Counted from the first letter of the stretch, positions 22,556 through 54,722 are shown. The stretch: 64,000 nucleotides of DNA from Antedon mediterranea (GCF_964355755.1 NC_092679.1:20195432-20259431); one strand, 5' to 3'. Numbers and translations: made by a program. Notes: generated from the letters alone by a model not told the origin.

Positions 22556-22829
22556 TATTCAATATACGAAATTACATTGGTAAGTTATGTAATGAAACAC
22601 CGATATTAATAGAATTATATTGACGTCACATCAACCTGTTTTTGTTGTTACCCACGTGACCGTGTGTTGAATCTGCACAGAGGCAGTCGCCGAAATATTA
22701 TATTTATTTTGTATTACACAGGAGCCGTGCCTTATTATAGTAAGTGACTGTGCAAATTTGAAACCCATTTATACGTCTATACCAGTGTTGATACCACGCC
22801 ATTGTGTCTTATTGACGACGATTGATAAG

Positions 22830-25800
22830 ATGGATGTGTTTTACGTTCTCTTACTTCTGTCTATTTCCTCGAATATTAATGCACAAAATACCATCAATGA
22901 AGACCACAATGTGGCTTTAAATGAGGAAAACGATGTTATGTTAAAGTGGAGAGTAGATGGAGATGATATTTTCTTCGAAATGAGCGCCGCGACTACGGGT
23001 TATGTGGCGATTGGATTCTCTCCAAACGGCGGTATGCCAGGAGCTGATATCGTGGCGGGATGGGTCAAAAACGGACGGGCATATTTATCCGTAAGTTACC
23101 AATTGAATTAGTATACATAGTTTATTATTACAATCGCGTAGTATACCGTAAAACATGCTAACACGCATGGCCATGAACAGGGACGACTCACGAGCAAAAA
23201 ATACGATACGATATCATGTAGAAAAAAACCTATAGGAAGCCAATTATTATAAACAGAAAGTGGCTCAAAAGCAAGAATTGTAGATGCCAGAATAGTATAC
23301 AGTAATAAGTATTAGTTAATTGTACAGAGCCAATAAGTTAACGCGTTTTGTCGACTTCCATTCAAGCCAATTGTTAAGGTGTAGGCCTATGGTAAGTCGT
23401 TATTTTTATATATATTATTATGTTTCTTTTAATTGAAATAGAAATATATCGTTCCCTCTTGATTACTGTTTATATTGACTTAATAATATTAAACACATAA
23501 TAACACACTGATTTGGATTACAATACCATATTGTCAAAACCACACCTCAATGTTGCTTCTTACCCAAGACACATTGATATGTTGTCGGCTTCCGCTTTAT
23601 ATCCGTCAATGTAAATCTATTAATCTCAACAATTGTACCAAAGTGCTTAAAACAAGAATTAATATGGGAGAAAAAAACAGATTGAATTACAAAGAATTAA
23701 AAAGATGGGTTTTTGAAAGGGTTTTGAAAACCTAGATAGAATGTGAATCTTGAATGGAATTAGGAAGATTGTTGCTTAGGAGCCACAACTGCAAAGGATC
23801 GATCATTGGTCACCGTCATAACCTGTTGATTGAAAAGGGGCGACATTTAAACATTAACCGAGAGTCTAGAATATGAATGTTCTTTGATAAATTAAGTTTA
23901 GAAGATGAAAAACATTTTATTTTTACTGTCCTTTTTTATAGAAACATTAGGAAAAAATATTGATTTAAATATATACAAGTTTAAAAATATGTTTTGTAAA
24001 CAATGAAATCCATACAATTAAGTATTTTGCAACTTACTTATATAAAGCTTATGAAAAAAGAAAAACCTGTATAAGATTTTTTTATGTGAAATGGACCGGA
24101 GGCCATTGTTTATTGAAATAAAAGAAAAAAAGAAAGGTCTTCAGGCGACTAGTTGAAACAAGAAGTACAAATTTAGTCGACACGTTTACACATTGAATAT
24201 ATTCGTTTAATTAAGGTGGAAATGTATGATGCTGATTATTGTTATTTTTATTATTAAATAATGTTATTCCTCAGGATCGTCATGCTACGACTTATTCCAG
24301 ACCGGTGGCCGATGCATCGGACGATTATGAACTTCTGTATGGTTACGAAGAAAACGGTAAAACGACCATGGCCTTCAAACGCAAGCTGAACACATGTGAC
24401 GATAAAGATAATATAATCACGGTAAATTTATTTATTTTATTTTTTTAATTAATTGCCAGATAAAGTGAACTAATACAAATAACATTATACAGTGACGCAC
24501 TATCAAAGTGGCTCTCCATGCGCTTAACCACAAAAACGTTTAACAAATAAGAGCTTTGAAAGTAAGTTTCTAAATAATGATGTACATGTCAATAGTGTGT
24601 GTATAATAATAAAAACCTAATTGTTTAATGTTAATAGATCTCAACAAACCTAAAACGATAATTCAAAAGAAAGAATACGTAGAGTATAGTAAGAAAGACA
24701 GTTTATGACGTCAACCGTTTTTCCCCTAAAGCGTGGTTCTCACTAGAATGCACCGCGGTGATGTATTGACGCAAAGTGGTGTATTGCGTAATCACAATCG
24801 CAACAGTGCTGCAAACATCGCAGGTTTGATTTCACGCAGGCGGGAGGGAGCAAGCACAACTATTGGAAGGGCATTTTATTAATAATAATAATAATAATAA
24901 TAAATAACATTTATAAAGCGCAAGAGACAAAGGTTTCAAAGCGCTGTGTTTTCCAAGATCAGTGCAAGTAGTAGCGTGCGATTATGCTTCTCTGAAGAGA
25001 TGAGTTTTGAGTTTAGTTTTAAATGTGAAAACAGATTTTGATGAGCGTATTTCGAGTGGTAGAGTGTTCCAGAGTTTTGGGGCTGCGACAGCGAAAGCAC
25101 GATCACCGTAAAACCGAGTTCTGGAACGGGGTCCAGGTTTTAGAAGAAGTCTGCTGGATGAACGAAGCGAAGAGTTGGTTGACGGAGTAATGATGTCACA
25201 TATGTAGGCTGGAGCACATCCGTTGATGGCCTTATATGTCAGCAACAGGATTTTAAAACGAATGCGCTGATCAACAGGCAACCAGTGTAAGTCACGTAAA
25301 ACGGGAGAAATATGTTCATGTCGTTTAGTGCCAGTGATAAGTCTTGCGGCGGAATTTTGGATTCGTTGAAGAGGAGACAGATAAGAAGTTGGTAGGCCGT
25401 ACAGAAGCGAGTTATTACAGTCCAGACGAGATGAAACAAAAGCATGAACAAGACGTTCAGTTGATGTTTTGTCAAGGTACTTACGAATCTGGCCGATCTG
25501 GTAAATTCCAAAGGAAGCACCACGGCAAACATTACGAATGTGTTCTTTTAAACCGAGGCTGTTGTCTAGTTGGACGCCTAGATTTCTGGCTGAGCTGGAG
25601 GTAGAGACACTAGTATCTCCGATATGGACCAAAGGAAATGATGATGCCTCACGGAACTTTGAATGAAAATGGATCATTTCAGTCTTGGAGTCGTTGAGCA
25701 TGAGTTTATTTTGAATGGCCCATGAGCGAACATCTGCAATGCATGAAAGGCTGTTAACAGATTCAGAGTGATGTGTAGGTTTCATGATTAAATATAGTTG

Positions 25801-28800
25801 AGTGTCATCTGCATAGATCATATGACGAACTTCCGGGTGGGAATCAATGATGTTGCTGAGTGGTCCAGTGTATAAGATGAAATCGAGTGGACCTTTTACG
25901 GATCCCTGTGGTACACCCCAGGGTAGAGCGAACTCATCAGACATCGAATCACCCACAATGATTGCTTGTCTACGATTCTCAAAATATGAAATAAACCATT
26001 TCAATGCGGTTCCGCTTATGCCGTATCTTTTATGAAGACGTTGAAATAATAAATCATGATTGATAGTGTCAAATGCTGCGGAGTAGTCGAGTAGAATAAG
26101 TACCGCTTCATTACCTTTGTCTAAAGCAAGTAGTAGATCGTTTGTAACACGTAATAAAGCGGTTTCAGTTGAGTGGAAGCGGCGGTAGGCTGATTGGACT
26201 TTTGAAAACAGGAAATGTTCATCCATATATGCTTTTATCTGAGCAGTTGCAATTCTTTCCAAGACTTTAAAAAGGAAGGGAAGATTTGCTATTGGTCTAT
26301 AATTTTGTAGGAGGTTGGAGTCGAGATTTTGCTTTTTCAACAGTGGCATAACGAGGGACAATTTAAATGCAGATGGTACAGTACCTGATGACAGCGACAT
26401 GTTGACGATTTTAGTGATATGCGGTAGTAGAGCGTCAATGCAGTTTTTTAGTAACCGTGTTGGAATTGGGTCAAGTCTACTGGACTTAGATGCGCTTTCA
26501 GCGATGACTTTGCGTACCGTATCTTCTGATATTTGCTCAAATTCAGCGAAACTACTATTACATGACTCGTCGACGTTGACAGTTATTAGTGGAGTGTTTA
26601 TGGAGTTAAGTTTCTTGCAAATTTTCAGAATCTTTTCATTAAAGAAACAGCCAAACTGGTTTGCGAGATCCATTGAAGATGTGTGTTTTGGCAGAACAGG
26701 AGAAGGATCGACCGAGTACAGTTTACTTATGATGCGGAAAAGGTTCTTGTCATCCGCATTAGCGATTTCATTGCGATGATAATTGCATTTTGCTAGATCT
26801 AGCATATCTTTATATGCTTTGCATTCCAACTTGTACCTCTGTTTGTCGATATCCAAACCAGATTTCAACATTCTGCGTTCTGATCTCCGTTTGACGCACT
26901 TCGCTTCACGGAGTTCATTCGTGTACCATGGTGCCCGTGGTCTAATGGTGACCAGTTTAGTTGTTAACGGAGCATGTTGGTCAAGGATGTACTGCAATAC
27001 ATTATTGTATTGGTCAGCGAGATCGGAGACATTATCTTCCGGTGCGCAGACGAGCGGGGAATTCATTATATCTTCCACAAAACAATTTAGATCAATGTTA
27101 CGAAGTTTGCGGTAAGAGATTGTCCGCGTTGGTTGTTTAGGATGTGATAAATCCACAAAGCTGATGACAGCCATATGGTCGGATGGTAGTCCTTGTTTGA
27201 CAGTGGTTTGTTTTATTATGTTGTCGTTTTTTCGAGAGATTAGAAGGTCCAGTGTGTGCCCGCTAACGTGAGTGGGGCCTTGGACGTGTTGATGAAGACA
27301 ACTCGTGTAAAGCAGTTCATCAAATCGCTTGGTGTTGTTGTCCAAGAGGTCATCTGTGTGAATATTGAAATCACCAACTATCAGAAGGTTTTTGGTGCAA
27401 GAGACTGATTCAAGAAGTGATGAGAATTCAGTGATGAACAAGTCAAAGGTAAGTTTGTTTTTGGTCGATGGTGGTGGTCTGTAAATTGAAATCAAGTTAA
27501 TTACAGATGAATTGGAAGTGATCTTGATATCCATATGTTCGAAAGACCGGAAACTTGTTGAAACATTTGGTGTTATTTGGAGTCCACGGTGCGAAATGAT
27601 GCATATTCCACCTCCGCGTCCACCTGTAGGGCGTGGCTCATGTGACACCACGAAATTTGGGAGGGTGTTACTCACGTCCGCAATAAAGTGGTTGTCACTT
27701 GCATCACCTTTCAACCAACTTTCGGTAATTACTAAAATGTCTAATTCAACATCCAAAATAAAATCACAAACGTCAACAGTTTTATTTCTTATAGAACGCG
27801 CATTCCACAGTCCAAAACAGATGGAACTCGAACTACGAGATTGTTCAGTATCCACGGAAACAGGTCTGCGAGGTTGAGAGATGTGTTCAGTGGCGGCAGA
27901 GATAAGCTTGCTTCGTCGTCGACCAGCCTTCTTTCCTCTATGTGTTTTTCGAGTTGAGAATGCTCGGCATGTGGTAAAGGCATTGATATTCAAACGATTT
28001 ATAGTGTCAATTTCTGATGGAGTCAACGATGACTTTAAGTTTCCTGATAATCTGAGAAGTTGATCACGATCGTAGTAAATCATAGACGCAATAGATGAAC
28101 TGACAGGTTGAATTAAAGTCAATGAACACCCGTTATGATAAGACGATTCGGTTCTGTGAAGTAAGCCGACTACTACAATCCTAGGCCTACCGTAGTTGAC
28201 AAATCCGGCAAAGAATGTTGAATGAACCGTGGATACGGCTGACCGCGAAGGCTGACTGCACAGGAATGTGAGTAGACAGGCAAACGAAACTGGCCTAGGA
28301 AAACGGAACATTAGTTTCGCTAGTAGACCAACGATGTTATCTTCACAAATACATACAACGGTCAGTAATAACCAGGAAAAGTTCGATGTGGCATTAAACA
28401 CACAGATTTCAGTAGGCCTATACAGAAACTGTAATTTTACAGAAACTTGGAGAACAGATCAGACTGGCCGCTTGTAAGGCGCACACGTCTTGTTGACATC
28501 AAACAGAATTGATGAAAAAAAAAAAAAAAAAAAAAAACCTACGTTGCGTAGGTTGCGTTACGTTGCGTCGCTAGTGGGAACCAAGCTTTAGCAAACAATA
28601 GAGACAATACCCGGAACGTTTATAGGAGACATTCTGTCAAATTTCAGCCCTATTACAGTCCAATATATTTTATAGTCGAGTTGAATCTCCCTTCAACATG
28701 CCCACACACCGGCACTGCTACTTTCTTTTTGTGTTTGTATGAGATAAATATTTATGGATTGTTTTTTAGAGTGATACATTACGAATAATTTGGGCTGTCA

Positions 28801-34375: not shown

Positions 34376-35879
34376 CTTTTTAAACTAGAATATGATTTCT
34401 CTAGAGATTTAAAGTTTTAATCTTTTACAATATTTTACATATTACAATTTTGTACGATTCATTTTTTGTTTATGATTTAATGTTAAGTTATATAATAAAT
34501 CATTACTCTAGGTAGTAGAGAGAGTAATGATAACCTGTAACGATTTATATGATGCGATGCTTTAGGCCATAGAGATAATTGTTGTAGTTAATAATATCTC
34601 TGTGTAAGCCTATCGGTATTACTGAGTTTTCAAGCAAGACGATATGGAAAACTGTGTAAATTTATTTAAAATACAGTTGTATGATTGTGGAAATTGAGGA
34701 TATGATTTATGTGATAACATTTTATAAAAAAATCTATTTCATGATTTTTGGAATATTATAACAATAAGACTTTTTTAAAAGATGTATGAATATAGTTTTT
34801 ATCTCTCAATATCTGTTAATATTATTATTATTATTTTATTATTATAAATTATTGCTAGTTCGCAGAGGTAATTAATAAAATTGTGTAAAACTGCGCGTCG
34901 AGCATAAAGCTTGGTTCCCACTAGAACGTAACGCAACGCAAGCGTTTTAACCAATGACAAGCGAAGTTATAGACGGTTAGCAATCACGAGCGAATAAGCC
35001 ATCGCTTGTGATTGGTCAATTCACTTGCGTTGCGTTACGTCCTTGTGTTGCGTCGCTAGTGGGAACCACGCTTCAGGGAGGAACGAGGGGACACACTGTT
35101 TTGAGTGGGGTTACCGTAACCACAAAAGTGCTCCCCAGCTCATATACAGATTATTTCATGTGACGTAAGTATGGTTCACTAGGCCTCTGTAGGCCTAAGT
35201 CTATAATATGATTTATGTATTTTTAGTGACACAGTGTAATTCGTTGTGATTCTGACGCTTTCTATTATAACATATAGGAATACCATATACGATACACAAA
35301 CCAGCATTTAAAACCAACCATTCATAACGAGTTTTGTTATTCATTTGCAAAGTAATTATATTGGTTATGGTGTATTAACAAACAATTGCATCAAATATCG
35401 AGTTAGACGGAATTTTTGACGAACTTTGGTAGTGTATGCCTATTTTTGAAAATTACAATCAATCAAATGCCATCTTGATAAATATATCAATAGGATCTAG
35501 ATCTAGGATACCATTGTATTCTGTAATTTATCCCATGTGCGTACATACAAATGATATTTCCTAAAGCTCTGTCTACACTATGATGTGCCTAATTATGGTA
35601 GTGATATGCTCAATTATGGTAGTGATATGACATCATCATGTCCATATATGGACATATCACATTTTATTGTCACATAAAGTTTGATAGTGTAGACATAGCT
35701 GTAGCTAGGCATGTATATTGCAGCACTTTTTTAGACATTAGAACAAGCACACTCAGTAATACCCGTTGTTCCATTTTATTTTTATTCTTTGGTATTTCCA
35801 GTTTGTATTGAAATCAATCCATGCATATAATTAGAGTATTGAATATGTGTTTGTATACAATATACAGTCACGGGGAAAT

Positions 35880-38800
35880 ATGGCTGACTTTCATATATTT
35901 CAACCAGATGATATCGAGATCAAGCATAATCTGGGAGATAAGTTTAATTTATCCTTCGGAATTGTGAAAATTACTGGCGAATCAGTAGCAGTGAAGAAAA
36001 ATGTCACAATTGGCGTGCAGAAACGGGAGTTGGATATATTGAAAGGTCTACAACATACAAATATTGTCCGACTGTTGGGGATTATTGAGAGCGAACAGCA
36101 CACGTCACAAGGGTTAGTACTTGAATATGCACCAAACGGAAGCCTATATGATTTCTTACATAAGAAGCCTAGAACTCAATTCGACTATTTAGATTGGTGC
36201 AAACAGGCCGTACGCTCGGTCGTGTATATCCACAGTAAAGGCATATCGCATAGAGATATAAAATCTAAGAATTATTTAGTTTTTGGAGACACTATCAAGC
36301 TAACTGATTTTGGCTTGTCAAATTTCAAACTTGACGTTACTTCAACTACTTCGCGTAATGTACGCGGTACGATCATTTGGATGTCTCCTGAAGTAATGGA
36401 TGAAGCGGAGGGTGTCGATTATTTTAAAGCAGAGGTATACTCCTTAGGAATAGTTTTGTGGGAATTATATTATAAGAGAAAGCCCTATGAGCATCTAAGT
36501 ATGGCACGTATCACTCAACATGTTCTTAATAAAGGTCATCCAGAAATGGATGATACATGTGACGTACGCTTGCGTGATGTGATGCTGAATTGCTGGAATT
36601 ACCAACCAGACCAAAGACCAAACGCAGAGCAGATTCTGACGTCACTTGATAACGTACCTGAAATATTGGTCAGAAGTAGTTTGAAGGTAATAGTATAATT
36701 ATTAATACCTGTAATTTCTGCAATACAGTACAATGACAACAGGTTTGTAAATACATCATTCGAGTCTGTCAATATATATTTTTGTTACTGTTAATGCTCA
36801 TCTTTTTCCATTAATTAATGAATTTTATATTTGCAGGAAGAAGATCAGACCGCATTTCAACATTTGCTAGCAAACCTCAGCAAAGATTATGCTGGTAATA
36901 AATACCGTTGGTTAAAAATGCTTCTACATGGTATTATACCTAATGGATGTTATGACGATAACTCTACAGGGCTTGACTTATTTAATGAACTTGTTGACAT
37001 TGGAAAGATTTCAATTACTGATGTCACCCTCTTGTCGGATGTTGCTGAAACCACCGAACAGACATCGGCAAAAGATCGTATAGCCGAATATAAAAGGACT
37101 GTACAATGCAGTGAAACATTAGGAACAAGATTAACACCATATCGGAAGGCTCTTTTTGAAGCCCTCAGGAATGTTGGGCGTGATGATTTACGTAATGTCA
37201 TTGGTTTCTACAAAGTTACATTCCATGGCTTTGACAATATATGGGATGTTGTTTTTCACCTTGAGCAACACAAACTATTAGATGATACCCAAGAAAAGTG
37301 TAAACGGTTTGCAGATCTTCTAAACAAAAAGACAGGGAGTATTTTACTAGGTAAATCTTGATAAAATATAATTATACATTTCTGGTTATATCATTTATAA
37401 TAATACTACTTAGTGGAAGAATTTTTCAATTCTAAATAGAATCGGATGTTAGAATATATGTTATAATTGTCCATAATTGTTCTTTTCCCATAGCTGCTCC
37501 AAAAACCCTAATAAGGTAAGAAGACTACCAAAACGAAAAAAATAAGATAACTCGCAATTTAAAAAATCTTTTAGGACAAAACAATAGAAATGATTTATAA
37601 TATAAGAAACAAAGATTTACTAAAGTGATAAATGTTTCGGTAAAGAATTATTAACGTCATGTAGGCCTACATTTTTCTATAAATATAAAACGAATTGAAG
37701 TACGTAGGGATATATACTAATTTTAATGTGTCGAGGTACAATAAATTTGAATAAATATGAATGAATAAATAAACTTTAAAGGAATAAGAAACGGAAGAAT
37801 AAAGTGGTTTAAGAATACGATTTATTTTATCGGAAGAAACAATTGAGGAAAGTATATAATTATTAAGAATTAGAATGTTGTAAGATGCAAATGAAACACG
37901 GTAAATAAATGTTAATAGAAATGCGTGCGTTTGTTTTTGCGTGTAACATTTTACCTGATAAAATGAACTTGAAGTATTAGTAAAACACCACTACTCAAGA
38001 GGAATTATGCTAAGGCATTGAAGAATTAGTTTTTAGATATTTTTCTGAACAGGCTCAGAATGAATTTCTGACTGTGTGCGTCATGAGAAGGTACGTGGAA
38101 AACCCCGTCATATGGGTCGTTGATTTGTCCGTAGTCATTGCATTTTGCCGGGGATTCCCTATCATTTAAGTATTTCCGTAGTACCCTATTTATCTTCATT
38201 TCTCTACGTCCCTAATATTGGGCAGAATTTCTGTAGTAATTACGGACGTTCCGAACTTTGAAATAACAGTGTTTAATTGCTTCTTTCTGCAAATTCTCTT
38301 TCATATTTTCTTTTCTGGAGTGAAGCAACACTGTTGTACATTTTAGTGAATAAATGAAAATGATTTTTTTAAATTGTTGTTTTACTGACTTACTTAGCAT
38401 TTATTGAAAAATAATACAATTCAACGTTTTGCTCAATATATTTATAGCAGCAATTATTAATTGATAATAGGCCTAGTAATTAGTTTGGGGACTTCCTCTG
38501 ACGTTCGCATTCGCAACAAATGTTATCCTTAGTCACATTTTTATCCGAATTATTACTCATTTTGTTTGTATATTGACATGATAATGTGTTCATTTATTCT
38601 GTGCATGTTAAAATATGTTAAATGCATATCGCCGCAAATTACTCAATTATTATTTTTGTGTTGGGTCTGATATGTTCGTTTTATTTATGCACATGTGTTC
38701 TTAAGACCAAAGCTCCATGATAAACATTGAATTACTCCTGTATTGTATTAAAAACCAAATCAAATGAAGACGTTTTATTAAATTTATTTTTTTTATCACT

Positions 38801-41800
38801 AATTTTCTTGTTGATTCTGCTTGTATTGATGTGTGAGTTCCTGATAATCCTATTTGTTCCTTAGGTCACCTAAGCAATGGAAGGAAAAACGTTTTAATTA
38901 AATTTCTTTTTTTTTCTTAGCATTTCTTTTTTCATAGCCAAACTATTAATACGCCGTCTGTACTAAGAGAGTATCACTGACAGTTGAATTTGTTTTTCGC
39001 CAAGACTCCATGATACAACTAAACTGGAATGAAAACAACAAATCTAATAAATGCAAATTGTAGTGGAATAACGTTAAGAATGATAAAAAAATAAAATAAA
39101 AAATACTATACAACAAAGCATGAGATGCGATAACTAATAGCAAAAACAATAGCACGGTCTAATATATGCGTGAATGGCGCGCCATAGAAATCTGTTGTGG
39201 CTGAAACTGTCTGGTGATATTCGTCAACACGAATACGCTTTACGAATATGAAATGGGGATCAGCTCAAAGGTTTAACAAAATGTGTGATGTATCCGTTTT
39301 CGTTATCGTATTCGTAAGGTTGCGAAAACTCCCTATTATTGGATAAAAACGTGAACTTGGTGGAAGATTTCATTTATAGAAATTGTTACATACATTACAC
39401 AACTGTTTCTTTTTTTTTCACAGATGATATCCATAATATTAGGTAAGGAATCGGATGCCAGATAGTGGGGTTTTCAGAAAATAAGTCACTTTACAACTTT
39501 TAACAAGTATTTTGATCTCCGATTTTGTTCGTACACGCATTCACAGTGTAATTTACCCTGCATTTACGTCAGAGTAGGATAAAGCACCAACTAAAATAAA
39601 TCTTGATTTTGAAAGTTTAGCAGCAAATCTATACCATAATACTAGTATTTGATAAATACATTAATTTGCCAATTTCACAGTCTGAAACCGGCACTAACTT
39701 TACTCTTTATTAAAAATAATGGATTGATATTTGTACAAATTTAGAGATGGAACACCTCAACAACATTTGGATACACATTCCAAACCAGACCAAAGGCTAA
39801 ACGTGAGTGTAATGCCACTTGATAACAAAACTGAAACACTCGTCACTAGTAGTAGTAGACCTAGCGCCAGGCAAAAAGAAAAACAAAAATCAGGAATACA
39901 CACGGTAGGATAATATGAACTTGTATAGTTGGCCTAGTGACCTCGGAATGCCAAACAATTCCTCATAAACAATTTAATTTATGGTTTTTAGGTTTAGATC
40001 ATTATTAGTTGGTTTGTGACTTTTGGATGACTATGAAAAACGGTTTCTTTTTCTCAAATTCCAAACAATAATTCGTTTCTTATATCTACTGTTTTCTAGA
40101 CTTGGCTATGTATAGCACTGGGTGTGGTGATGGTAGGTGTCGCAATACATTATACAGCACCGACTCACGAACTTACCACAGAGTTTGTTAGGGACACGGC
40201 CGCAGCACCAACTCGCGAACCTACGACAGAACCAGTTGAAGACACTACTACAGCACCAGCTCCCGAACCTACCACAGAGTCTGTTAGGGACACGACCACA
40301 GCACCAACTCGCGAACCTACGACAAAACCAGTTGAAGACACTACTACAGCACCAGCTCCCGAACCTACCACAGAGTTTGTTAGGGAAACGACCACAGCAC
40401 CAACTCGCGAACCTACGACAGAACCAGTTGAAGACACTACTACAGCACCAGCTCCCGAACCTACCACAGAGTATGTTAGGGAAACGACCGCAGCATCAAC
40501 TCGCGAGCCTACTACTAAAGCACCAACTCCGGAACCTACGTCATCAGAGTCGATAACAACACACTCCAAAGATAAGAAAAAAGAAGAGCCTAAACGAATA
40601 ATCAAAAATAGGCGTGAAAAGGTAAAACGTTTTACTTATTAACTATTACATTATTTCAGCGTCAGGGGCATACGCTCTGGAATAGTCTTTGTATCACCAC
40701 CCGACAGTGATTTAGTTCACTTTTGGGGTGCCCTGTCTTATTTTCTGGCTGTTATTTATTGTTTTGTTTATTGTTTTGAGACGAATAAATGAAATGAAAT
40801 GAAATAAAATTGTATAAATTTAAAAAAAAGGACGCAAAAAGTGTCTGGTTAAGAAAAATAATACAACGTGTTGGAATTTAATTTAGTATGTAATACAGGA
40901 GCACCACAAAGATGCGTCCTTTCTCCTGTATTGTCAGCATATATACACATGAGTTTAAAATTAAATTTGATGACTGCGTTTTAATTAAGTACACCGATGA
41001 CAGTGTTATAACTGGATCTATTAAGGATAATAATGAATTAAACTATACAGTCAATAAATAATTTTGGCACATGGTGTTGTAATAATTTAGTACGAACTAA
41101 AAAGATCATTTTTGACTTTAGACGCTCTATTAAAAGCCATAATTGGCTCCAATTGTCATAACTATCAATGAACAAAATATTGAAATTGTAGAGGAGTTTA
41201 AGTATTTTAGTGTTGTGCTTGATAACAACATTAATTGGAAAGCCAACACTTTATCTAAATCCAAAAGAGCAAGACAGAGAATGGTTTTCCTCCGAAAACT
41301 TAAAACATTCAATATTACATGTGACATTCTTAACCTTTTTAAGTGTTCTTTTATTCGGCTCTATTGTCTGGTTCTCGAATCTTACTGAAAAATACCAAAC
41401 TAGCTGAAATTGTAGTGTGCCAGTAAAATCATCGACATTAGCCTTGAACTTTTATTTCGCTTCGTGAAAGGGGCATCCTAAAAACTGTAAATACAATTCG
41501 TCAGGATCCTGATTACCCTCTTTAAGCTTAGCCAAACTGGTAGACTGATCACTCTGAATCAAACACTAAACGTTGCCGACAATAATTTGTTATTGTTTAT
41601 AGTTCGTATGGTCTCTTTAGATTCATTGGTTACACGCTTTTTCTTTGAATTCATTGTAAATTGCATGTAAATCAAAATGTAAACCTTCCAACCAAATTCG
41701 TTGTTAAAATGACAATAAATAATATCGTATCGTATTGTATCGAAGGCTTTATATAAAATTAATTTTGCACTGTTCTTTTTGATTTGTTTTTAATAGTCAA

Positions 41801-42844
41801 ATACAGATAGCGAACAAGCTACAAAATCAGGTAGGTATACACGCATATTATTATGAAGGATAATACCCTAGTTAAAATGTAACTAGTGTTCCTGACTATA
41901 TTCTGCTCACTTTCACTTTACAACAGGACATGGTCTACGTAATCTGTATTAAACCTGTAGATTCGAAGATATTTTGACCCGTATGAAAAACCCTCCGTAG
42001 GTCCACTCTTATTTAAGTGTTGATATAAGTGCCATCACTTTTTAAATAGCTTCTTTTTATGACGAGGTTTTTCATTTCTTTAATGTGCATGTTTGGTTAG
42101 TGTCTGAATATTAAAACTCTTCTCTTTAGCATCTGCCTACATATTTTTTTTTTGGAAATTGTCCCCATTGGAGGACTAAACTTTGGATTTAACTTTGACC
42201 ATATTTTCATTCTTTAGGGAGTTTTTTTAATGATTTCAACTACGAAATCGAATATGCTAACTGGGAGCATTTTGGTTCAGAAAAATGGGGAAAATGCCGT
42301 AAACAACATTATAAGAAAAGAAATAAAACTGTTGATTTAGGAAGCCGTTATTCAAAAACAGGAGGTAAAATGGTTTAATCATATATGCATTGACAATCCG
42401 ATAAATCATTCAATTATTTCGACAATAAACTGATCGTAATTTTAAATGTTGTTAGCAAATATGCCTATCTAATTTATAATTTCAGATGATTATTACATTT
42501 GTGTTGCAATCAATCGTGGTGATAGTAGGCCTGAATCCACCAAAGGGGGCTATCTTAATAGTTCAAAAATTCCAGACGAATGGGATGAAGCGTGCCTTAC
42601 ATTTGAATACTTCATTACTGACGGACAAATTGATGTAGATCATTATAAAAATGGCAAACCTGAAAACGTGTTCACCAGTGGTTATACTAAAGGAAAATGG
42701 AAACCTGCAAGAGTTACTATTAATACTGTCGATATAAAAATATCCTACTTGTTGATTGGCGGAAAAGTATCTGGTGATGACACAGAGGTAGTTGCTATTG
42801 ACGATATTGATCTTACTGATGGTCCTTGTACACCAGAGGATTAG
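35880..42844 (+). CDS. Gene A: TKL-type Ser/Thr kinase - tandem DED - TM - mucin stalk - MAM-like domain (predicted type II membrane protein, about 846 aa)
   Basis: Exons: 35880-36686 kinase (VAVK, HRDIKSKN, DFG, GTIIWMSPE); 36837-37350 DED-DED; optional phase 1->2 micro-exons 37494-37515 or 39424-39442; linker 39745/39747-39904; 40100-40621 (TM WLCIALGVVMVGVAIHY, then T/P/E repeats); 41797-41830; 42218-42364; 42486-42844 (CLTFEY..W..A.V.I..VAIDDIDL..GPC, MAM-like, TAG). An in-frame path exists, but the join across 37350-39747 is inferred by analogy with gene C. Confidence 0.7.
40155..40540 (+). repeat. Coding 96-bp (2 x 48-bp) tandem repeat forming the mucin stalk of gene A
   Basis: cagcaccaactcgcgaacc at 40203, 40299 and 40395; encodes TTAPTREPTTEPVEDTTTAPAPEPTTE.VR.T. 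Confidence 0.95.
40880..41722 (+). mobile_element. Decayed Rex1/Babar- or L2-like LINE fragment in a gene A intron
   Basis: Frameshifted RT remnants NTGAPQRCVLSP, IKYTDDSVI, IEIVEEFKYF.VVLDNNINWKANT, ARQRMVFLRKLKTFNI; tail aataaataatatcgtatcgtattgtatcg. Confidence 0.75.
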
Positions 42845-43703
42845 GATTCATGATTGAAGGGGATTCAAGATTCAAGGAATTGTATTGGTCCACTTTAAAA
42901 TGGAAATTTGTTTTCTTGGTATAAATATCAAAATTTAATTTTAAATTTTACTTTGGCTGTTAAAATATAAAAGTAAAAGTAATTTGGCAGATATTAATTA
43001 ATTTGAATACCAGCTATTACCTGCTTTGAGGTAAATATAAGATTTGATATCCCCGAGGGAATGATATTTTGTCGAATCTTATCTTTCACCTCTCAGCAGG
43101 CAATTTCTGTATAATATTATCCGCCTTTTGTTAATTACATGGTATGTAGTTGTTTTGTTCTTTTGTTTGTTAATAGCGCCCATAATTTTTAAGTTATCCT
43201 GAATGTGGGTGTTACCTACTATATACAGAACATGCCTGTTGACGAAAACCTATATATTTGAGAGGTCACAAACGCCTATTAAAATTTCGTGTTTTTTGTA
43301 TTTGTTTTCTGCCAAGTATTTCGCTCAGTTCGGAGTTATTTCCCTATTTATTACTATTTTTTTTACAATTTATAAATATACATCTATATCCAGCTTTAAA
43401 CAATGCATTTAGTTGACATTACACTTTCTATTCTTTAATTTTCATCATATTTAGGGTGAAAATGTCTAAAATATGATTTTTTAATTAAAAAAGATGTAAT
43501 GTGGAAACTTTGAATTTAGATTTTATGTGATTTGATTATTAATTATGTCATGTTATTTTGTAAGAGTTCTCTCTTGGTTTACAAGTTACATTTTCATTTT
43601 ATGGTTTTGTTAGGAGGATTAAATTGATCATCGGTGACGACAATCTAATCGAAATAAACTACATGGAGATCAGTCATGTATAAAGTAGCATAGGTGTTTG
43701 TAT

Positions 43704-44344: not shown

Positions 44345-47300
44345 TCGTTGTGAGCGGACGTGTTCATATCGAGCTCCGCTAGGCTACCCATTGTGTGGAT
44401 ACTAGGCCAGTCAACGTAGGCATACTGTAGTCTACATGATGTGTTCGACCGGGCTACGTGTGCCGCTACTTATTTTGAACTTATTTCTTGGCCTCTATTT
44501 TTCAAGTTTTAATATGGGATTTTCATCCAGAAATCAATGGCTAAGGCCAGTCGATGGATACTCTGAGCCGGTAAGCTGCAACATTCCTAGCACCGTTGTA
44601 TGTAAATGTTGGAATTTGTATCTATGCGGTCAAAGCAGTACGACTACGTAGTACGAGTGTTGTTGCATTCCAACGTAGCAGCAGACCGTCAAGGAAGATC
44701 TACAGCGCACCACGTTTGCTCTATTCTAATTCCACTGTTACATTCTGTATTCTTTTAAGTGGCGATGTTGAATCGAATCCAGGTCCAGGTAATACTCAGA
44801 CATCTTCAGTTAAGGTATACTATCAAAACGTACGTAGCCTGAAGAATAAAATGGACGTATACAACTCAGATCTGAATGCACACCTAATTCAGAGCAATTT
44901 GGATATTGTCGCACTTACGGAAACATGGTTAAACTGCAACGTGCTCGATTCTGAACTTTCCGTTTCTAATTACACTTTATTTCGACGCGATAGAGATACT
45001 GATAAACGCGGTGGTGGTATCCTGATGCTAGTGAATAACAAATTTACCTGTAACCGAGTGGAACGCCTAGAAAGTGATTCAACGGAGTTCATGTGGATAG
45101 AGATTCAGCTAAAGCGGCGTAGTAGCCTACTTGTTGGATTATTCTATAGACCACCAAACGCTACACCCGATGTCCTCCGTCGTTTTACTTCGTCTGTGGA
45201 AATCGCTATGCTCTACTACAAAAACAGTGAATTCCTCATTCTTGGAGATTTCAACCTGCCCGAAATTAATTGGAGTAGTAACCCTTATTCTGCTCCAGCT
45301 CAGTCCATGGGAGAACACTTACTTGATGTATTGCTTTCTAGCTGTGGCCTATTTCAATGCAATACGTACTGTACAAGAATGGATAAAATGCTTGATCTTG
45401 TTATTTGTAGTAAAAACATTTCCGACAAAGTCTATACTGCTAACGATATTTTTTTATCTGACCACTCATCTTTGAGAATTGATTTCCGTTTAAATTTTGA
45501 TGTTAAATGTAGTAATGATAATTTGAATCGTAAAAGTATAATTTACAATTTTAAAGCACTTGATGTCAATAATCTATGTAATACTCTTAACTGTGTTCCA
45601 TGGAGTGTCTTAATTGATTTTGAAGGTGATTTAAATGAAGCTTTGGATATGTTTTATAATTTGTTAAATGCTGCCGTCAATGACACAGTGCCTAAAATTA
45701 GAAAGCGCAGAAAGCTTCCTCCGTGGTTTGACAATGAGTTGAGAAGTGCGCTTCAACTCAAAGAAAAGTATTATAGATATCTGAAAAAAAATAATAATCG
45801 GTTAGCCCAAAGTAATTTCAAATTTGCTCGCGCGTCTTTTAAAAAAATGTGCAATAAAAAGTACAAAGATTACTTGGACTCTTTGGCTAAGCAAATTGTC
45901 ACTAACAGTAAAAGATTCTGGAGCTGGATGAAAACTAAATACAAGTCAAATAATCTTCCTTCTGTCATGAGTCACGATAACATTTCATTCCAGTCTAATT
46001 ATGATAAAGCTACCACATTTAATTCTTATTTTCATTCTTTTTTCAGTGAGCCTTCTCCGGACGTTCCCCGGGACTATCCAGGTCTTCCTGACTATGCGGT
46101 GGATAACTTAAGTTCTCTGTCTGTGAATCAGCATTCTGTGGAAAAGGCACTTAGTAACATTGATATCAATAAAGCTACTGGCATTGATCAGATTAGTAAC
46201 GTTGTCTTAAAGGGTGCCTCCTCCTCACTCTCTTATCCGCTTTGCAAATTGTTTCAGCTATCTATTAATTCTGGGGTTTTTCCTTCATCTTGGAAACACG
46301 CTAATATTGTCCCAATTCACAAGAGTGGTCCCAAAAAACTAATCTGTAACTATCGTCCTATTTCGTTATTGCCTACTATGTCTAAGATTTTTGAGCGCAT
46401 TGTGCATGATGGTTTGTCATCACATGTTGATAATGCTTTAAGTCCTAGGCAGCATGGTTTTGTCTCTGGGAGATCATGTCAAACCAACCTCGCACTGCTT
46501 CTTGCTACATCATACGATGCAATTAACAGCAAGAAGCAGTGCGATGTGATTTACACTGATTTCTCTAAGGCTTTTGATTCCGTTTCCCATGATTTGCTTA
46601 TTTTTAAACTTTCAAAATTTGGTTTATCCGGTTCACTGTTAAGTTGGTTTAAAAGCTATTTAACTAATAGACAACAGCGTGTTGTCATTGGGGGAGAGAC
46701 ATCTGATTGGCTCCCTGTGTTATCGGGCGTTCCGCAGGGCTCGATCCTGGGCCCGCTTTTGTTTAATTTATTTATCAACGATCTTCCTTTAAAATTTAAT
46801 CATTCCGAGTCTCTTTTATTTGCTGACGATCTGAAATTGTTTAAAGTGATTACCACTCCACAGGATGCTTTTTCACTTCAGGAGGATCTGGATGGTCTCG
46901 TGGAATGGACAGAGAAGTGGGGGATAAAACTTAATGCTAATAAATGCAGATATTTATCTATAACACTTAAAAAAAGGCCTGTGCTCTTCAAATATAATCT
47001 GAGTGGACATGATCTTGAGATGGTTTATGTATGGAAAGATTTAGGTATTTTTATTGATAGTAAATTAAATTTTTGTTCACATATTAATCATGTGTTGTCA
47101 AAAGCTAATAGAATGATGGGCTTAATATGGAGAAATTGTAGGTTTATGAACGACGGCAGGGCACTTTTATCTTTATACAAATCTATTATACGTCCTCACC
47201 TTGAATATTGTTCCGCAATTTTCAATTCAATTTCTCCATGTCAGGCCCGTCGAATCGACAATGTTCAACGGAAGTTTGTTCGATTCCTGTCTTATAACTG

Positions 47301-47809
47301 TGTTAATTTTGCCTTTTCCATTGATTCTGTCAGCAATCGTCGAACGATATCTGATATGGTTTTTTTATATAATATTTTAAATTCTAAATATGACTGTTCA
47401 TTAATTTCACTATTTAGTTTAAATGTTCCTGGTCGTACACGAAACAGACATTTATTGCATATTCCTTTTAGCCGTGTCGACTGTACTAAGAGGGGACTTT
47501 TTCATAGACTACCTTATACATTTAATAATCTAAATAGCAATCATATCGATATTTTTAATGATAGACTTGGTTATTTTAAGAGGACGATGATGTGTTCACT
47601 TCTTGAACAGTCTGCATAACCTGTTTTAATTGAAATTTTTTATGGCATGCCAATCTATGTTTTATATTTATATATATATATTTTATCTGTATTTTATTGT
47701 TAACCGTTTTTGATGTTGTATTGTTTTATGTTTCAAACCTGTTAGTGGCGGTATTTATCGCTGTTGGTTTTGATTGAATAAAATAAAAATAAAATAAAAT
47801 AAAAAAAAA
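44345..47809 (+). mobile_element. CR1-like non-LTR retrotransposon (APE+RT frame 44596-47619) with an N-terminal 2A-like peptide
   Basis: YQNVRSL, LTETWL, LGDFNLP, SDH, DFSKAFDSV, SGVPQGSILGPLLF, LFADD; LLSGDVESNPGP at 44752-44787; (TAAAA)n tail at about 47779-47809. The 5' boundary is approximate. Confidence 0.93.
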
Positions 47810-47961: not shown

Positions 47962-49135
47962 ACTGGCTGGATACTACTGGTTTTGGTATTAGTTGCGCAA
48001 TGGCAAGCAGGAGGTAAGTTTAGAGATATTATTATATTGAAAATAAGTGAGGCAATCAAGAGAGTGATTTTTCAGATAATTTATGATCTAAAAACAGGTA
48101 TTTTCTATACCTGATATGATGTTTTTTTTAAAGTAATACATTAAAAAAATAATGCGTGCTTTTAATACTTTTATTTTTCGACGCTATTAAAAAATATCAG
48201 ATTGTGTTTGTTTTGATTTCAACGATGGAAATTCTGGCTTGATTCCGTTTGGTAGTGAGAATTGGATGCTATCCTCTAAACAACATAATGTCGACCATTT
48301 AGTACACCGAAACTCAGAATCAGGTAAAATTATTTAATCATGCTATATTAGAAATTCAATAAATTACTCAATTTCCGGTTATAAATATTCATTTCATAAA
48401 TGTATTCATTTACTTGGTAAAAAACGATTACAATAACAATAAAAATATACAAGAACAAGATTACAAGCAATATACTAAAAGAATGAGGGTTCAAATAGTA
48501 TAAAATATTAACATTAACAACAGAACAATGCCATATACATGGCTGCAGTCGCGTGCTCATCAAATTTGAGTTAGTGCTAACCGACCAACCGACCGACAAA
48601 CCAATTACTTATGGTTATTTCTGTTTAAATAATTTTAAAAGAAATTCAAAATGCAAGCGACATAATTGTTTAAAAAAATACTATGCCGTGGTAGCGTAAT
48701 ACAGAAATTCACACTACTTTTGTAGAGTAATGCATTTTCAGATGTGCCTAGCAGTGGTCTACCTACTTTACAATTTCAGATTGTTACCTTTATGTTACAA
48801 CAACCGGCAGAACCAAAGCCGGCTACAATCAGAGTCCAGAAATACCAGACGAATGGGATGAAGCGTGCCTTACATTTGAATACTTCATTACTGACGGACA
48901 AATTGATGTAGATCATTATAAAAATAGCAAACCTGAAAACGTGTTCACCAGTGGTTATACTAAAGGAAAATGGAAACCTGCAAGAGTTACTATTAATACT
49001 GTCGATATAAAAATATCCTACTTGTTGATTGGCGGAAAAGTATCTGGTGACGGTACGGAGGTAGTTGCTATTGATAATGTTTGTGTTACTGAAGACGTAT
49101 GCTTTGATGATAATGATGTAAAAGAAGAATTGTAA
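47962..49135 (+). CDS. Gene B: hydrophobic signal/anchor + single MAM-like domain ending in KEEL; start exon not located
   Basis: Exons 47962-48013 (TGWILLVLVLVAQWQAG), 48201-48323 (CVCFDFN..GSENW) and 48780-49135 (SPEIPDEWDEACLTFEY..VAIDNVC..KEEL*). Phases are consistent and the exons are paralogous to the last exons of genes A and C. Confidence 0.75.
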
Positions 49136-52009: not shown

Positions 52010-54722
52010 ATGGTAAGTAGCTTATTTAAAAAAAACTGTATTTAGTACTCGGTTACAACTAAATACTGGATCTAGATATGCGTCACCATCCGAATTAATC
52101 GAGGACGTACAGGTTTCACTGACGGATCCAGGATTTAAAATAGGGCCGGACGATGAACCCCACCCATTGGATCCACTATGTGTTTAAATTATATTTCATA
52201 GGTGTGTGACTATGCCTATTTTCGGATAGGGATATTTTGCTTTTTGTGAAGATGCTATTTACTTAGTATTGTAGTATATTTAATCCATAATGATGATGTA
52301 TTTATTGATTCATTTAAGAGTAATTCGCAGTATTGTTATTTTATGTGTGAGTTCTTTTAAAAAAAATTTCTTACGACTGTTTTTATTTTCACAGGAAAGA
52401 GATCAGATAAAATTTAAGCAATTTCTAACAGATCTCAGCAAATATTATGTAGGTGTAAATTACCGTTGGTTAAGAATGCTTCTCTTTGGTATTATACCCA
52501 TTCAATGTTTAGAAGTAAGCACTACAGGATTTCAATTATTTAATAACCTTGCTGAATCGGGAAAGATTTCAAAAACTGATGTTACCCTTTTGTCAGAAAT
52601 TGCCGAAGTTACCGAGCAGACATCGGCAAAAGATCGTATAGCAGAATATAAAAAGATCATACAATGCAGGAAGACCAAAACAAAAGTAACACCATATCGA
52701 AAGGCACTTTATAAAACTACTGTGAATATTGGGCCTAATGATTTGCTGAATGTTACTAACTTCTACCCCCTTGCTGCTCGTAACTTCGACGATATATGGG
52801 ATGTTGTTTTCTACCTTGAGAAAGAGAAACACTTAGATGATACGCAGGACAAGTGCAAGACGTTCGCAGATCTGCTAAATGAAACCGCACGAAATATTTT
52901 ACTAGGTAAGTTAGAATCGGTCAAACATACATACATATCTGGTTTAAAATTGTGTTATTTCCAAATGGATGTATAGGAAGAGGAGTTTATTCTATAGTCA
53001 TAACTTTACCCTAAACTTGGAGGTTACATTCGATTCTTAAACATTTCAGAATATTTTTTACTGGATTTTTCAGTGTCGGAACACAGGAGTTATTTTAAAA
53101 CTTTTTTGTTACAGATGCTGCTAAGTCTTTACCTTATCAACACTTGGATATACAGTTCAAACAAACTCATCAGCCTGTAACAGCTCCTTTTCCCGAACCA
53201 AAACGAAGACCAAACGCGGAAGATATGCTGACGTCACGTGATCATGAGGGAACTGAAACATTTGTCCTTAGTAAGCCTATTGCCGGACAAAAAAAGAAAC
53301 ACATATTAGAAAAACACACAGTAAGGATAATATCAACTTGATTTTTTTTATAGGCCCAGTGAGGTTAAACAATTCCTCGCATATAATTTATGTTATTGTT
53401 ATTTAGGTATTAATTACGCGTGATATACTTTTAAATGACTGCGAAAAATTAAGGTTCCTTTTTCACAAAATCCAAACAATATTAAAAATGATTGTCTTAT
53501 ATCTACTATTTTCTAGACTTGTCTATGGATATCACTGATTGTAGTAGCTGTGTTGGTTGCCATCGTTATACAACAATCAGTTATAGAACCGACTACAGAA
53601 CCAGTTATAGAACCGACTACAGAACCAGTTGGAGAAACGACTACAACACTAACAGCGCCCTCCAAAGACGGGAATAAAGAAGAAGCACCCAGAGAAATGA
53701 AGGGAAATAATAGGCATGAAAGGGTAATGTATATTTTTACTGATTACCTTTTGCAAATATATATATAATTCCTCCATGCTATTACATTGTAGTATCATAT
53801 TCAAATGTTAGGAGTATTGACATTAAATGATAGATGTCGATTTTTGTTAGGATATGACGATCATTGGGATAAGTTCTCCTCTATGTGTTGATGTAGGCTA
53901 ATTAGTGTGGTATACGATAAATAAGCACTGATTGTTTTATTTATTTGTTAATAGTCGACAGCTCCAGCTAGAGAACGGACGATCTCAAGCAGTAAGTATA
54001 CATTCAACATTCATACTTATAGAATATCTTCTTTTACAGATATACAGCCGTGTTAGGAGGCAAAGTCAGTTTAAAATAAATTAAACAGAAGTATTTCAGT
54101 GTACGGTTACATAGCATATGCCTACATATTTGTTAGTATGATTTTATTTTAAAGGTATTTTGAATGATTTCAACCACAAAAACATTAATTATGCTGGCTG
54201 GGAGGATCATGGTAGCGAAAATTGGGAGATACACAATAAAATAATTAATTCCGGCTACAATTTAGGAGAGCGTTACTCAGGATCAGGTAAAGCATAATTA
54301 TTCTTACTTTTTTTTTCAATAACCCTGACTGACGTCATATTTTGATAGCAATTAGAACTATGGATTTTATAATTTCAGATAATTATTACATCTATGTTGC
54401 AAAAAATGGCAGAGAATCCAGAAAGAAGGGCTACCTTAACAGTCCAGAAATACCAGACGAATGGGACGACGTGTGTCTCAAATTTGATTATTATATTAGT
54501 AACAGGGATTCACAAATCGATGTAGATCACATTTTTAACGGCGAACATAAAAAGGGATTCAAAAGCCCCAAACATCGTCATGAACAATGGAACTCTGCAA
54601 CCGTTACCATCAATACTGTCAATAAACAAAATTCCTACTTTATGTTTTGCGGAAAAGCATCTGGTAGCGGTAAACAAATAGTTGTTATTGACGATATTAG
54701 TTTTAGTGAGGGCGAATGTTAA
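52010..54722 (+). CDS. Gene C: tandem DED - linker - TM - short Thr/Pro stalk - MAM-like domain (predicted type II membrane protein, 479 aa)
   Basis: Clean 7-exon model totalling 1440 nt with no stops: 52010-52012 (ATG|gtaagt), 52395-52905 (DED-DED), 53115-53320, 53517-53723 (TM CLWISLIVVAVLVAIVI after basic KKKHILEKHT), 53955-53991, 54155-54286, 54379-54722 (CLKFDYY..W.SATVTI..VIDDISFSEGEC*). Confidence 0.85.

Follow-up and report, generated by a model that had tools for sequence, protein, structure and literature searches.

The present analysis concerns a window of 64,000 nucleotides from the crinoid Antedon mediterranea (GCF_964355755.1 NC_092679.1:20195432-20259431), that is, the whole stretch of DNA analyzed, read as one strand from 5' to 3' and numbered from its first letter, and in particular a gene located at 35880-42844 on the + strand (gene A) whose predicted product begins with a kinase and ends with an ectodomain. 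From the N- to the C-terminus, the protein comprises a TKL kinase, a tandem death effector domain (tandem DED, tDED), a linker, one transmembrane (TM) helix, a Thr/Pro stalk and a MAM domain. The explanation that we consider reasonably probable is that gene A encodes a type II one-chain surface sensor, which would couple MAM clustering to DED assembly and MAP3K-like signalling. A preliminary description of this DNA had proposed a receptor kinase in reverse orientation; the kinase-first and ectodomain-last order is upheld by the NCBI model, the positive-inside flanks of the TM segment, the lack of a signal peptide and the chains of the paralogs, and the part that falls short is the single mRNA, for which RNA support was limited to the splice between exons 1 and 2. 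"Receptor kinase" is used here as a structural label, the ligand, topology and activity being inferred.

Gene A begins with the ATG at 35880 and ends with the stop codon at 42842-42844, which gives a coding sequence of 2562 nt in DNA whose composition (26–41% G+C in the window) is that of AT-rich eukaryotic DNA. Its exact translation is P0001, an 853-aa entry of NCBI/UniRef named "uncharacterized protein" from A. mediterranea, so that the one-gene model given for these coordinates in the preliminary description and the NCBI model are identical; what is new here is the reading of gene A, the sequence itself being already deposited at NCBI as uncharacterized. When the DNA is walked from the ATG through GT..AG introns, eight coding exons are obtained and every intron is GT-AG; a second exon path, shifted by 4 nt at the boundary of exons 6 and 7 and otherwise the same, also yields P0001. 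Translation of 35880-36686 (residues 1–269) reproduces the beginning of P0001 with 100% identity, and the precomputed Pfam domains of P0001 are kinase, DED and MAM.

All the exons are on the + strand. The entire kinase domain is encoded from the initiator Met by exon 1 (35880-36686, 807 nt, residues 1–269) and the tDED by exon 2 (36837-37350, 514 nt, residues 270–440 plus 1 base), followed by a micro-exon used in the NCBI model (exon 3, 39424-39442, 19 nt, DDIHNIR), which has a polypyrimidine tract and a GTAAGG donor, and by the linker (exon 4, 39745-39904, 160 nt, with an alternative acceptor at 39747). Exon 5 (40100-40621, 522 nt) carries the TM signal-anchor, the mucin-like stalk and then a basic stretch; exon 6 is a second micro-exon (41797-41830, 34 nt, SNTDSEQATKS) for which the neighboring paralog in the window, gene B, has an equivalent 37-nt exon in the same phase; and the MAM domain is divided between exon 7 (42218-42364, 147 nt, N-terminal third) and exon 8 (42486-42844, 359 nt including the TAG stop, C-terminal two thirds).

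The passage from the tDED exon to the linker exon was examined by scanning intron 2 for AG..GT segments of matching phase. Three in-frame routes had been described, with alternative splicing as a suggestion, and all three were recovered, sharing one stop: through 39424-39442 to 39745 (853 aa, the NCBI form), through an additional candidate micro-exon at 37494-37515 (+, 22 nt, AAPKTLIR) to 39745 (854 aa), and directly to 39747 (846 aa). The combination of both micro-exons and the direct junction of exon 2 to 39745 each close with a stop and were discarded. Although it lies outside the NCBI model, AAPKTLIR is the counterpart of AASKTLLR, AALKTLKR and AAPKTLER in the paralogs P0002, P0124 and P0123, respectively, and the candidate exon 37494-37515 is, by sequence comparison, the paralog-conserved one of the two intron 2 micro-exons of gene A.

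The assignment of exon 1 to a TKL-like kinase retaining VAVK, HRD and DFG agrees with the Pfam results, in which it matches PK_Tyr_Ser-Thr (PF07714; E 1.1e-44, 153.2 bits, cut-off 23.1) and Pkinase (PF00069; E 5.8e-42, 144.3 bits, cut-off 31.7). The motifs are found, all on the + strand, at residues 36–39 (VAVK with the beta3 Lys, 35985-35996), 124–131 (catalytic loop HRDIKSKN, 36249-36272) and 143–145 (DFG, 36306-36314). Gene A and its paralog P0002 both retain the beta3 Lys, the alphaC Glu (KRELDIL, residues 48–54 in gene A), HRD, the Lys and Asn of the catalytic loop, DFG and SPE, and in the family alignment both read SHRDIKSKN in the catalytic loop and TDFG at the DFG position. The best single-domain matches among solved structures in the PDB are DLK/MAP3K12 (110 bits), ZAK/MAP3K20 (108 bits) and TAK1/MAP3K7 (about 106 bits), followed by CTR1 and B-Raf, and a profile built from four family kinases gives DLK (131.7 bits), ZAK (120 bits), ABL2 (119 bits) and TAK1 (115 bits). 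Neither RIPK nor IRAK appeared among the 60 PDB matches listed for the gene A kinase or among the 25 PDB matches of the family profile at E <= 1e-30. An EGFR construct and JAK were rejected as closest kinases because their top E-values arise from two kinase domains per chain. On the other hand, when residues 1–445 were compared in the Atlas by protein language-model features, RIPK2 clusters (kinase plus CARD) came first (0.97, 206 of 256 features), whereas the Atlas structure search with the same residues returned TAK1, DLK, RIPK1 and MLK clusters at TM values of 0.55–0.59. Of the kinases proposed earlier for comparison, RIPK, MLKL and IRAK are not the closest solved ones by sequence matches, these being DLK, ZAK and TAK1, with RIPK2 first by Atlas features. 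Leucine zipper, SAM, SH3 and TAB-binding regions were absent in the Pfam scan of P0001 (E up to 1), which returned kinase, DED and MAM only. The gene A kinase may be read as a putative member of the TKL group that is MLK-like by sequence and RIPK2-like by layout.

Exon 2 is detected by Pfam as a single DED slightly below the cut-off of 35.9 bits (34.7 bits alone and 27.9 bits within the whole protein), while the corresponding region of relatives scores higher (38.8 bits for the exon of gene D, a further family member in the window, 47.0 for P0125 and 53.6 for P0128). The presence of two DEDs, as originally described, was recovered by structure prediction and by profile. When the 171 residues of the exon were modeled by AF2 from a family alignment of 10 sequences, ten helices were obtained (pLDDT 89.8, pTM 0.86), and the top Foldseek matches of the model in the PDB include the tDED of caspase-8 (4zbw_A; E 1.2e-5, TMq 0.71). 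The model aligns to the tDEDs of caspase-8, cFLIP, vFLIP and MC159 over 168–184 columns (TMq up to 0.74), the range for caspase-8, cFLIP and vFLIP being 175–184 columns (TMq 0.71–0.74); every row among the matches listed is a tandem-DED protein, and 13 matches reach E <= 0.001. Additionally, a family tDED profile gave 18 matches to PDB sequences at E <= 1, all except one being cFLIP, caspase-8 or viral FLIP (17 of 18), with 15–20% identity to these proteins. Exon 2 appears, by predicted fold and profile, to encode a tandem DED of the caspase-8/FLIP type.

The TM segment, mucin and MAM domain of the preliminary description were likewise found. The sole Kyte-Doolittle peak of P0001 (2.08, residues 498–516) corresponds to a putative signal-anchor with charged flanks, TWLCIALGVVMVGVAIHY (about 40100-40153, +), and the N-terminus has no hydrophobic segment. 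It is followed by a Thr/Pro mucin-like stalk (40153-40512, +) made of a 96-nt tandem repeat, i.e., a 32-aa unit (Tandem Repeats Finder, 3.8 copies, 94% matches); Thr, Ser and Pro account for 47% of residues 519–674, and O-glycosylation of the stalk may be expected. The C-terminal region matches the MAM profile of Pfam (PF00629, residues 708–850; E 3.6e-10, 40.3 bits, cut-off 26.4, profile positions 20–158 of 158), exon 8 by itself giving 3.7e-10. It contains four cysteines (712, 740, 771 and 849), and genes A and B lack the two N-terminal MAM cysteines that the paralog P0126 retains. As a single sequence, the MAM region of gene A found no PDB match at E <= 1; the family MAM profile found three, all weak (E 0.004–0.17) and all MAM chains (neuropilin-1, RPTP-kappa and RPTP-mu).

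Kinases and DEDs are cytosolic modules, whereas Thr/Pro stalks, sequons and MAM domains are of the extracellular type. The two sequons (N-x-S/T) of P0001, N721 and N759, both lie on the C-side of the TM segment. Counted over 15 residues per flank, the charges are +5/-1 on the N side and +1/-2 on the C side, in agreement with the paralogs P0002 (+5/-1 vs. +1/-1) and P0127 (+5/-1 vs. 0/-3). The kinase begins about 8 residues from the initiator Met according to the ZAK alignment, at the same point as in P0002 and in P0003, a relative from Anneissia japonica; a further coding exon or a signal peptide ahead of this start was considered and rejected, given the in-frame stop 45 nt before the ATG and the same start in P0002 and P0003. 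The layout departs from that of a type I receptor, with the kinase N-terminal and the ectodomain-type modules after the only hydrophobic segment, and shows the features of a type II signal-anchor: an internal segment, a positive-inside bias and lumenal-type modules on the C-side. P0001 is consequently predicted to be a single-pass type II protein with its N-terminus inside and its C-terminus outside.

The linker that precedes the TM exon provides an indication of how this arrangement may have arisen. The stretch KPDQRLNVSVMPLDNKTETLVTSSSRPSARQKEKQ (P0001 residues 460–494) can be aligned with the C-terminal tail of the kinase domains in the family, which reads QPDQRPNAEQILTSLDNVPETLVRSSSREKEKQ in P0002. 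Local alignment of the gene A linker with the kinase tails gave a score of 69 (z 9.7), which none of 300 shuffles equalled. The linker of gene B behaves similarly (z 9.3–9.8), that of P0002 itself is weaker (z 5.4), and that of P0124 is unconvincing (z 2.2, 11 of 300 shuffles as high). Judged by these alignments, the linker exon of gene A appears to be a relic of a kinase C-terminal tail that immediately precedes the TM exon and is in frame with it. Most simply, this would reflect an ancestor in which the kinase was directly N-terminal of the TM segment, the tDED having entered between them through a duplication or a fusion with a neighboring gene.

If gene A is a type II sensor, the MAM ectodomain, held away from the membrane by the glycosylated stalk, would bind a ligand or another MAM, and clustering of the ectodomains would gather the cytosolic tDEDs. 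The gathered tDEDs could then nucleate DED oligomers, as occurs in caspase-8/FADD/cFLIP assemblies, and this seed would recruit other DED proteins such as a putative DED-caspase, multi-DED adaptors or a tDED-NACHT protein. The kinase, if active, might start a branch of MAPK/NF-kB type or control the assembly through phosphorylation, whereas a dead kinase would act as a scaffold. Gene A is likely an immune or cell-death sensor belonging to a young crinoid gene family.

Members of this family were found by word-seeded searches, with a profile search limited to proteins of 663–2000 aa. Among longer proteins, the tDED exon as query returned 11 matches, every one from Antedon, and with P0130 and P0131 the number of Antedon proteins found with a tDED of the gene A type is 13. 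P0002 has the order kinase-tDED-TM-X, where X is a distinct C-terminal domain; P0122 and P0124 are tDED-TM-X; P0123 is a partial kinase-tDED-X without TM segment; P0126 has a tDED, a borderline hydrophobic segment (1.57, just below the threshold) and a MAM domain; and P0127, the product of gene B, is tDED-TM-mucin-MAM. P0121 is the X2 isoform of P0122 (X1) and differs from it only by the absence of a 37-residue TM-bearing segment, presumably one exon, so that one gene may yield anchored and soluble tDED-X forms. On other chromosomes are found P0130 and P0131, isoforms of one gene in which a tDED (48% identity to that of gene A) is followed by NACHT (74.5 bits), and the adaptor-like P0125 and P0128/P0129, with several DED pairs of the gene A type. 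P0130/P0131 correspond to a DED-NLR comparable to those described in amphioxus and sea urchin. By sequence the family thus seems modular and arranged in tandem, with the kinase present or absent and a MAM, a weakly ALF-like ectodomain or a NACHT domain at the other end.

The X domain (about 90 residues) takes the place of MAM at the end of P0002 and P0121-P0124 (residues 250–340 in P0124) and in an in-window copy (57666-57854). No Pfam match was found at E <= 10 for any of the five members. Its AF2 model (pLDDT 88.9) consists of a helix, four strands and a helix, for which Foldseek gives the shrimp anti-lipopolysaccharide factor (ALF, 2job) as the first PDB match (E 0.02, prob 0.97, TMq 0.45) and nothing at E <= 0.001. 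VIA-align over 48,161 chains also places ALF at the top and as the sole chain with Z >= 8 (Z 8.4, root-mean-square deviation 4.7, 86 residues), followed by dsRBDs at Z 7.0 and below, and in the Atlas ALF clusters rank first both by features (0.79, a lead only) and by structure (TM 0.74 over 83 residues). These values border on the range of unrelated folds, and the X domain is cysteine-free and lacks the ALF disulfide. The modeled likeness to ALF is weak and is taken as a lead, which would point the family toward microbial ligands if it holds.

Several observations weigh against the reading of gene A as a one-chain surface sensor, and they concern the kinase, the transcript and the history of the family. 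The Gly-rich loop (LGDKFNLSFG, residues 18–27, 35931-35960, +) had been called degenerate, correctly so, since in the HMMER alignment with ZAK (CGGGSFGSV) the first Gly and the Phe alone match and the GxGxxG pattern is not found. The loop is atypical in all four aligned family kinases, with the second and third glycines gone. The replacement of the alpha-F Asp by Glu (KAEVYS, residues 183–188, 36426-36443, +) is equally confirmed and is unique to gene A, DLK having KVDIWS and the three aligned relatives an Asp. Moreover, two of the four family kinases are without catalytic residues: the gene D kinase (58294-59109) reads LHNDIQSKN and TEFG (HRD and DFG replaced by HND and EFG, and the catalytic-loop Lys by Gln) and is likely a pseudokinase, whereas Anneissia P0003 reads AHRNIKSKK and ADVG (HRD and DFG replaced by HRN and DVG, and the catalytic-loop Asn by Lys) and is probably one as well. 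Catalytic residues are therefore dispensable in part of the family, gene D and P0003 having lost them, and three paralogs (P0124, P0126 and P0127) have no kinase at all. The earlier caution that activity may be atypical is reinforced by the odd loop in the four kinases and the HRD/DFG losses in two of them.

These data give substance to the explanation that survives best among the alternatives, in which the architecture holds and the kinase is a pseudokinase scaffold comparable to MLKL, IRAK3 or KSR, with signalling through the tDED alone. The full set of catalytic residues in gene A and P0002 argues against it, as do the conservative nature of an Asp to Glu change and the fact that some active kinases carry unusual Gly loops. 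We regard it as a substantial minority possibility. Catalysis by gene A appears doubtful from its sequence, and the chances that the kinase is competent may be put at roughly even.

An alternative function for the same architecture is that of a homophilic cell-cell adhesion or self-recognition molecule instead of a sensor of microbes, in which MAM-MAM contact would trigger DED/kinase signalling during tissue contact, regeneration or allorecognition. The solved MAM domains closest by profile are those of neuropilin-1, RPTP-kappa and RPTP-mu, and the MAM domains of neuropilin-1 and RPTPs act in oligomerisation or homophilic binding; the family is also fast-evolving and tandemly duplicated, as in recognition loci. 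However, sister paralogs swap MAM for the ALF-like X domain, a weak pointer to microbial ligands, and the tDED type of gene A heads a NACHT protein, which is typical of innate immunity. This explanation seems unlikely to us.

The transcript raises a different question, namely whether gene A is one unit or two. None of the sequencing runs is on record as RNA, and run X1 is taken as RNA by guess only. In this run, one contig runs from 36686 straight on to 36837, omitting a segment with GT..AG ends (depth 14.2; the shorter side spans 32 letters), so that the kinase-to-tDED splice exists in run X1. No RNA junction was seen in it from exon 2 onward; at 90% and 95% likeness, run X1 has no cover on exons 3–7 and the first half of exon 8 and is used as evidence in neither direction for them, and in runs X2-X4 the reads cross introns as DNA would. 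For the link from the tDED to the TM segment and MAM, the support is consequently the NCBI model, which is computed, and the paralogs, whose intron phases are identical. In addition, an in-frame Met occurs in the linker in the region of residue 469 (VSVMPLDNK), 34 residues ahead of the hydrophobic segment, and a separate type II TM-mucin-MAM product starting there is conceivable.

Two units merged by gene prediction would thus be a soluble kinase-tDED protein (exons 1 and 2) and a TM-mucin-MAM protein of type II starting at the linker Met, with a promoter in the 2.4-kb intron 2. Besides the missing junctions and the linker Met, this proposal is favored by the length of intron 2 and its richness in high-copy repeats, by the Anneissia relative P0003, a soluble kinase plus tDED, and by P0123, a kinase-tDED model without TM segment. 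On the other hand, the NCBI model joins both halves, and six more Antedon NCBI models (P0002, P0122, P0124, P0126, P0127 and P0121) connect a tDED to a C-terminal MAM or X domain, five of them with an intervening hydrophobic segment. NCBI isoforms named in the manner of P0121/P0122 are normally called from transcript evidence, which would add support for the junctions between tDED and X domain in that paralog. Gene B shares the intron phases of gene A (1,0,0,1,1), and its tDED and linker exons are a mere 209 bp apart, so that a second promoter could hardly fit between them. The linker exon of gene A is open from its acceptor, three routes connect it to exon 2 in phase, its Ka/Ks between genes A and B is 0.64, and the conserved kinase-tail relic (z 6.6–9.8) lies upstream of the internal Met, which shows that the linker is coding upstream of that Met. 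A two-unit origin is accordingly judged improbable, and a single gene spanning exons 1–8 quite probable. High-copy repeats occupy 35600-35850, 38100-39364 and 42879-43100, where the DNA runs reach word depths between 10^3 and 10^6, and the putative internal promoter site near 38.1 kb mentioned in the preliminary description falls within the repeat-rich part of intron 2.

The remaining points against a sensor function come from the family itself. Ks between gene A and the in-window copies is 0.18–0.67 for most exons and Ka/Ks against the in-window paralogs is 0.45–0.91, which indicates weak constraint, so that the paralogs of gene A appear, from these values, young and weakly constrained; the cluster also contains broken copies. 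The only non-Antedon relative found is P0003 of A. japonica (499 aa), which is soluble and has no TM segment; it shares 53% identity with gene A in the kinase and 17–19% in the tDED, a divergent tDED that Pfam misses. P0003 is named MAP3K2-like. The crinoid-only distribution suggested by these results depends on word-seeded searches. That gene A is merely a young chimeric by-product of birth and death, intact by chance and with little or no function, is very improbable: although the window holds a lone MAM exon, a frameshifted P0123-like copy, a catalytically decayed kinase and LINE insertions nearby, and Ks to paralogs is 0.18–0.6 for most exons with Ka/Ks of 0.45–0.91, all eight exons are open over 2562 nt with canonical splice sites, Ka/Ks is below 1 in every exon pair, exons 1 and 2 are spliced in run X1, and gene A keeps catalytic motifs that some paralogs have lost.

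When the family proteins were compared with the window by tblastn, the tandem array was found downstream of gene A. Its first element is a lone copy of the C-terminal MAM exon (48812-49102, +; 86% aa identity to that of gene A, Ka/Ks 0.45), located just downstream of the LINE at 44575-47619 and with no other family exons detected beside it by tblastn on the window. Gene B (P0127; 52392-54722, +) follows, identical to its NCBI model, with exons at 52476-52905, 53115-53320, 53517-53723, 53955-53991, 54155-54286 and 54379-54722 (+) that encode the tDED, a linker with the kinase-tail relic, the TM segment, a short mucin and the MAM domain. No kinase exon was found upstream of gene B; its tDED exon still has its acceptor, and the reading frame stays open ahead of the modeled Met. 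A P0123-like copy (56161-57854, +; 86–97% aa identity, X exon at 57666-57854) has its tDED split over two frames at 56457 and is probably a pseudogene. Gene D consists of the kinase (58294-59109, +) and a tDED (61712-62197, +), its downstream exons lying toward or past the end of the window.

Two LINE-type open reading frames (ORFs) are present, one on the - strand (24982-28458) with endonuclease and reverse transcriptase domains and the other on the + strand (44575-47619) with reverse transcriptase and endonuclease, and intron 5 of gene A contains a short retroelement-like ORF fragment (41143-41388, +) whose sole Pfam match is ALKBH8_N. Unrelated neighboring exons on the + strand encode a 2-oxoacid dehydrogenase acyltransferase catalytic domain (15317-15814), DOMON (22671-23111) and a PC4-type coactivator (63390-63998).

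Compared with known systems, gene A shares parts of its layout with several proteins and differs from each of them. RIPK2 and RIPK1 also have an N-terminal TKL kinase followed by a death-fold module on one chain; however, this module is a CARD or a DD instead of a tDED, and these kinases are soluble whereas gene A continues to a TM segment and an ectodomain. Of the single-domain kinases with solved structures, DLK, ZAK and TAK1 match gene A best in sequence and share with it the Ser/Thr-type loop HRDxKxxN, but gene A differs in its degenerate Gly loop, alpha-F Glu, tDED fusion and predicted membrane anchor. Caspase-8, cFLIP and viral FLIP contain two DEDs in tandem, with a predicted fold matching across 171 residues; in caspase-8 and cFLIP the tDED is followed by a caspase or caspase-like domain, whereas in gene A it is preceded by the kinase and followed by the TM segment and ectodomain. 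ALK, a MAM-bearing receptor tyrosine kinase, LTK and RPTP-mu/kappa resemble the prediction for gene A in being single-pass proteins with an extracellular MAM and a cytosolic catalytic domain, but they are type I, with the tyrosine kinase or phosphatase last and no death-fold domain. The bacterial Hanks kinases of the PknB/PrkC type have an N-terminal cytosolic kinase, one TM helix and C-terminal extracellular sensor domains. The likeness to gene A is limited to this order (kinase, TM segment, outer domains), since gene A has no PASTA domains and its kinase is of the eukaryotic TKL group; with introns and crinoid paralogs, nothing suggests a bacterial origin.

To our knowledge, animal receptor kinases are of type I and carry the kinase at their C-terminus. 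DEDs are familiar from soluble adaptors, caspases and FLIPs, and lineage-specific death-fold hybrids exist, such as the TNFR-caspase of amphioxus and sea urchin. A kinase-DED fusion, a protein with DED and MAM or a kinase-first animal receptor was not found described in the literature, subscription journals being mostly outside the scope of this search. More than 94% of metazoan and plant transmembrane kinases are single-pass Ser/Thr/Tyr kinases according to a survey whose available part contains no description of a kinase-first layout for animals (PMC10463195). Oyster membrane receptors with the order Cys-rich-TM-DED-TRADD-N have an intracellular DED, but their ectodomain comes first, and no kinase-tDED fusion, MAM domain or kinase-first layout is described in the accessible portion of that study (PMC8195603). 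Similarly, DED-NACHT and related fusions are reported from amphioxus, sea urchin and Nematostella, and the excerpted text of that work does not describe a kinase-tDED fusion, a MAM ectodomain or a kinase-first layout (PMC2575513). Invertebrate death-fold hybrids share with the gene A family the lineage-specific expansions and the presence of receptor, adaptor and effector domains on one chain.

If the explanation of gene A as a one-chain sensor is true, a kinase-first chain with a tDED would represent a new wiring of extracellular sensing to cell death and MAPK-type signalling, and a single chain would shorten the vertebrate pathway of separate receptor, FADD, RIPK/TAK1 and caspase-8. A broader and rather doubtful proposal is that crinoids have built a family of one-chain immune/death receptors in the orientation of bacterial Hanks kinases, with an outer MAM or ALF-like sensor wired to a tDED seed and a MAP3K-like kinase, so that receptor, FADD-like adaptor and TAK1/RIPK-like kinase would reside on one polypeptide, the kinase-tail relic being the trace of an ancestral receptor with its N-terminal kinase at the membrane. 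The gene A family in this window constitutes a natural domain-swap series (with or without kinase, MAM or ALF-like, with or without the TM exon) that could be used to dissect the modules. Crinoids would also join the deuterostomes, such as sea urchin and amphioxus, in which death-fold domains have been shuffled into lineage-specific immune repertoires.

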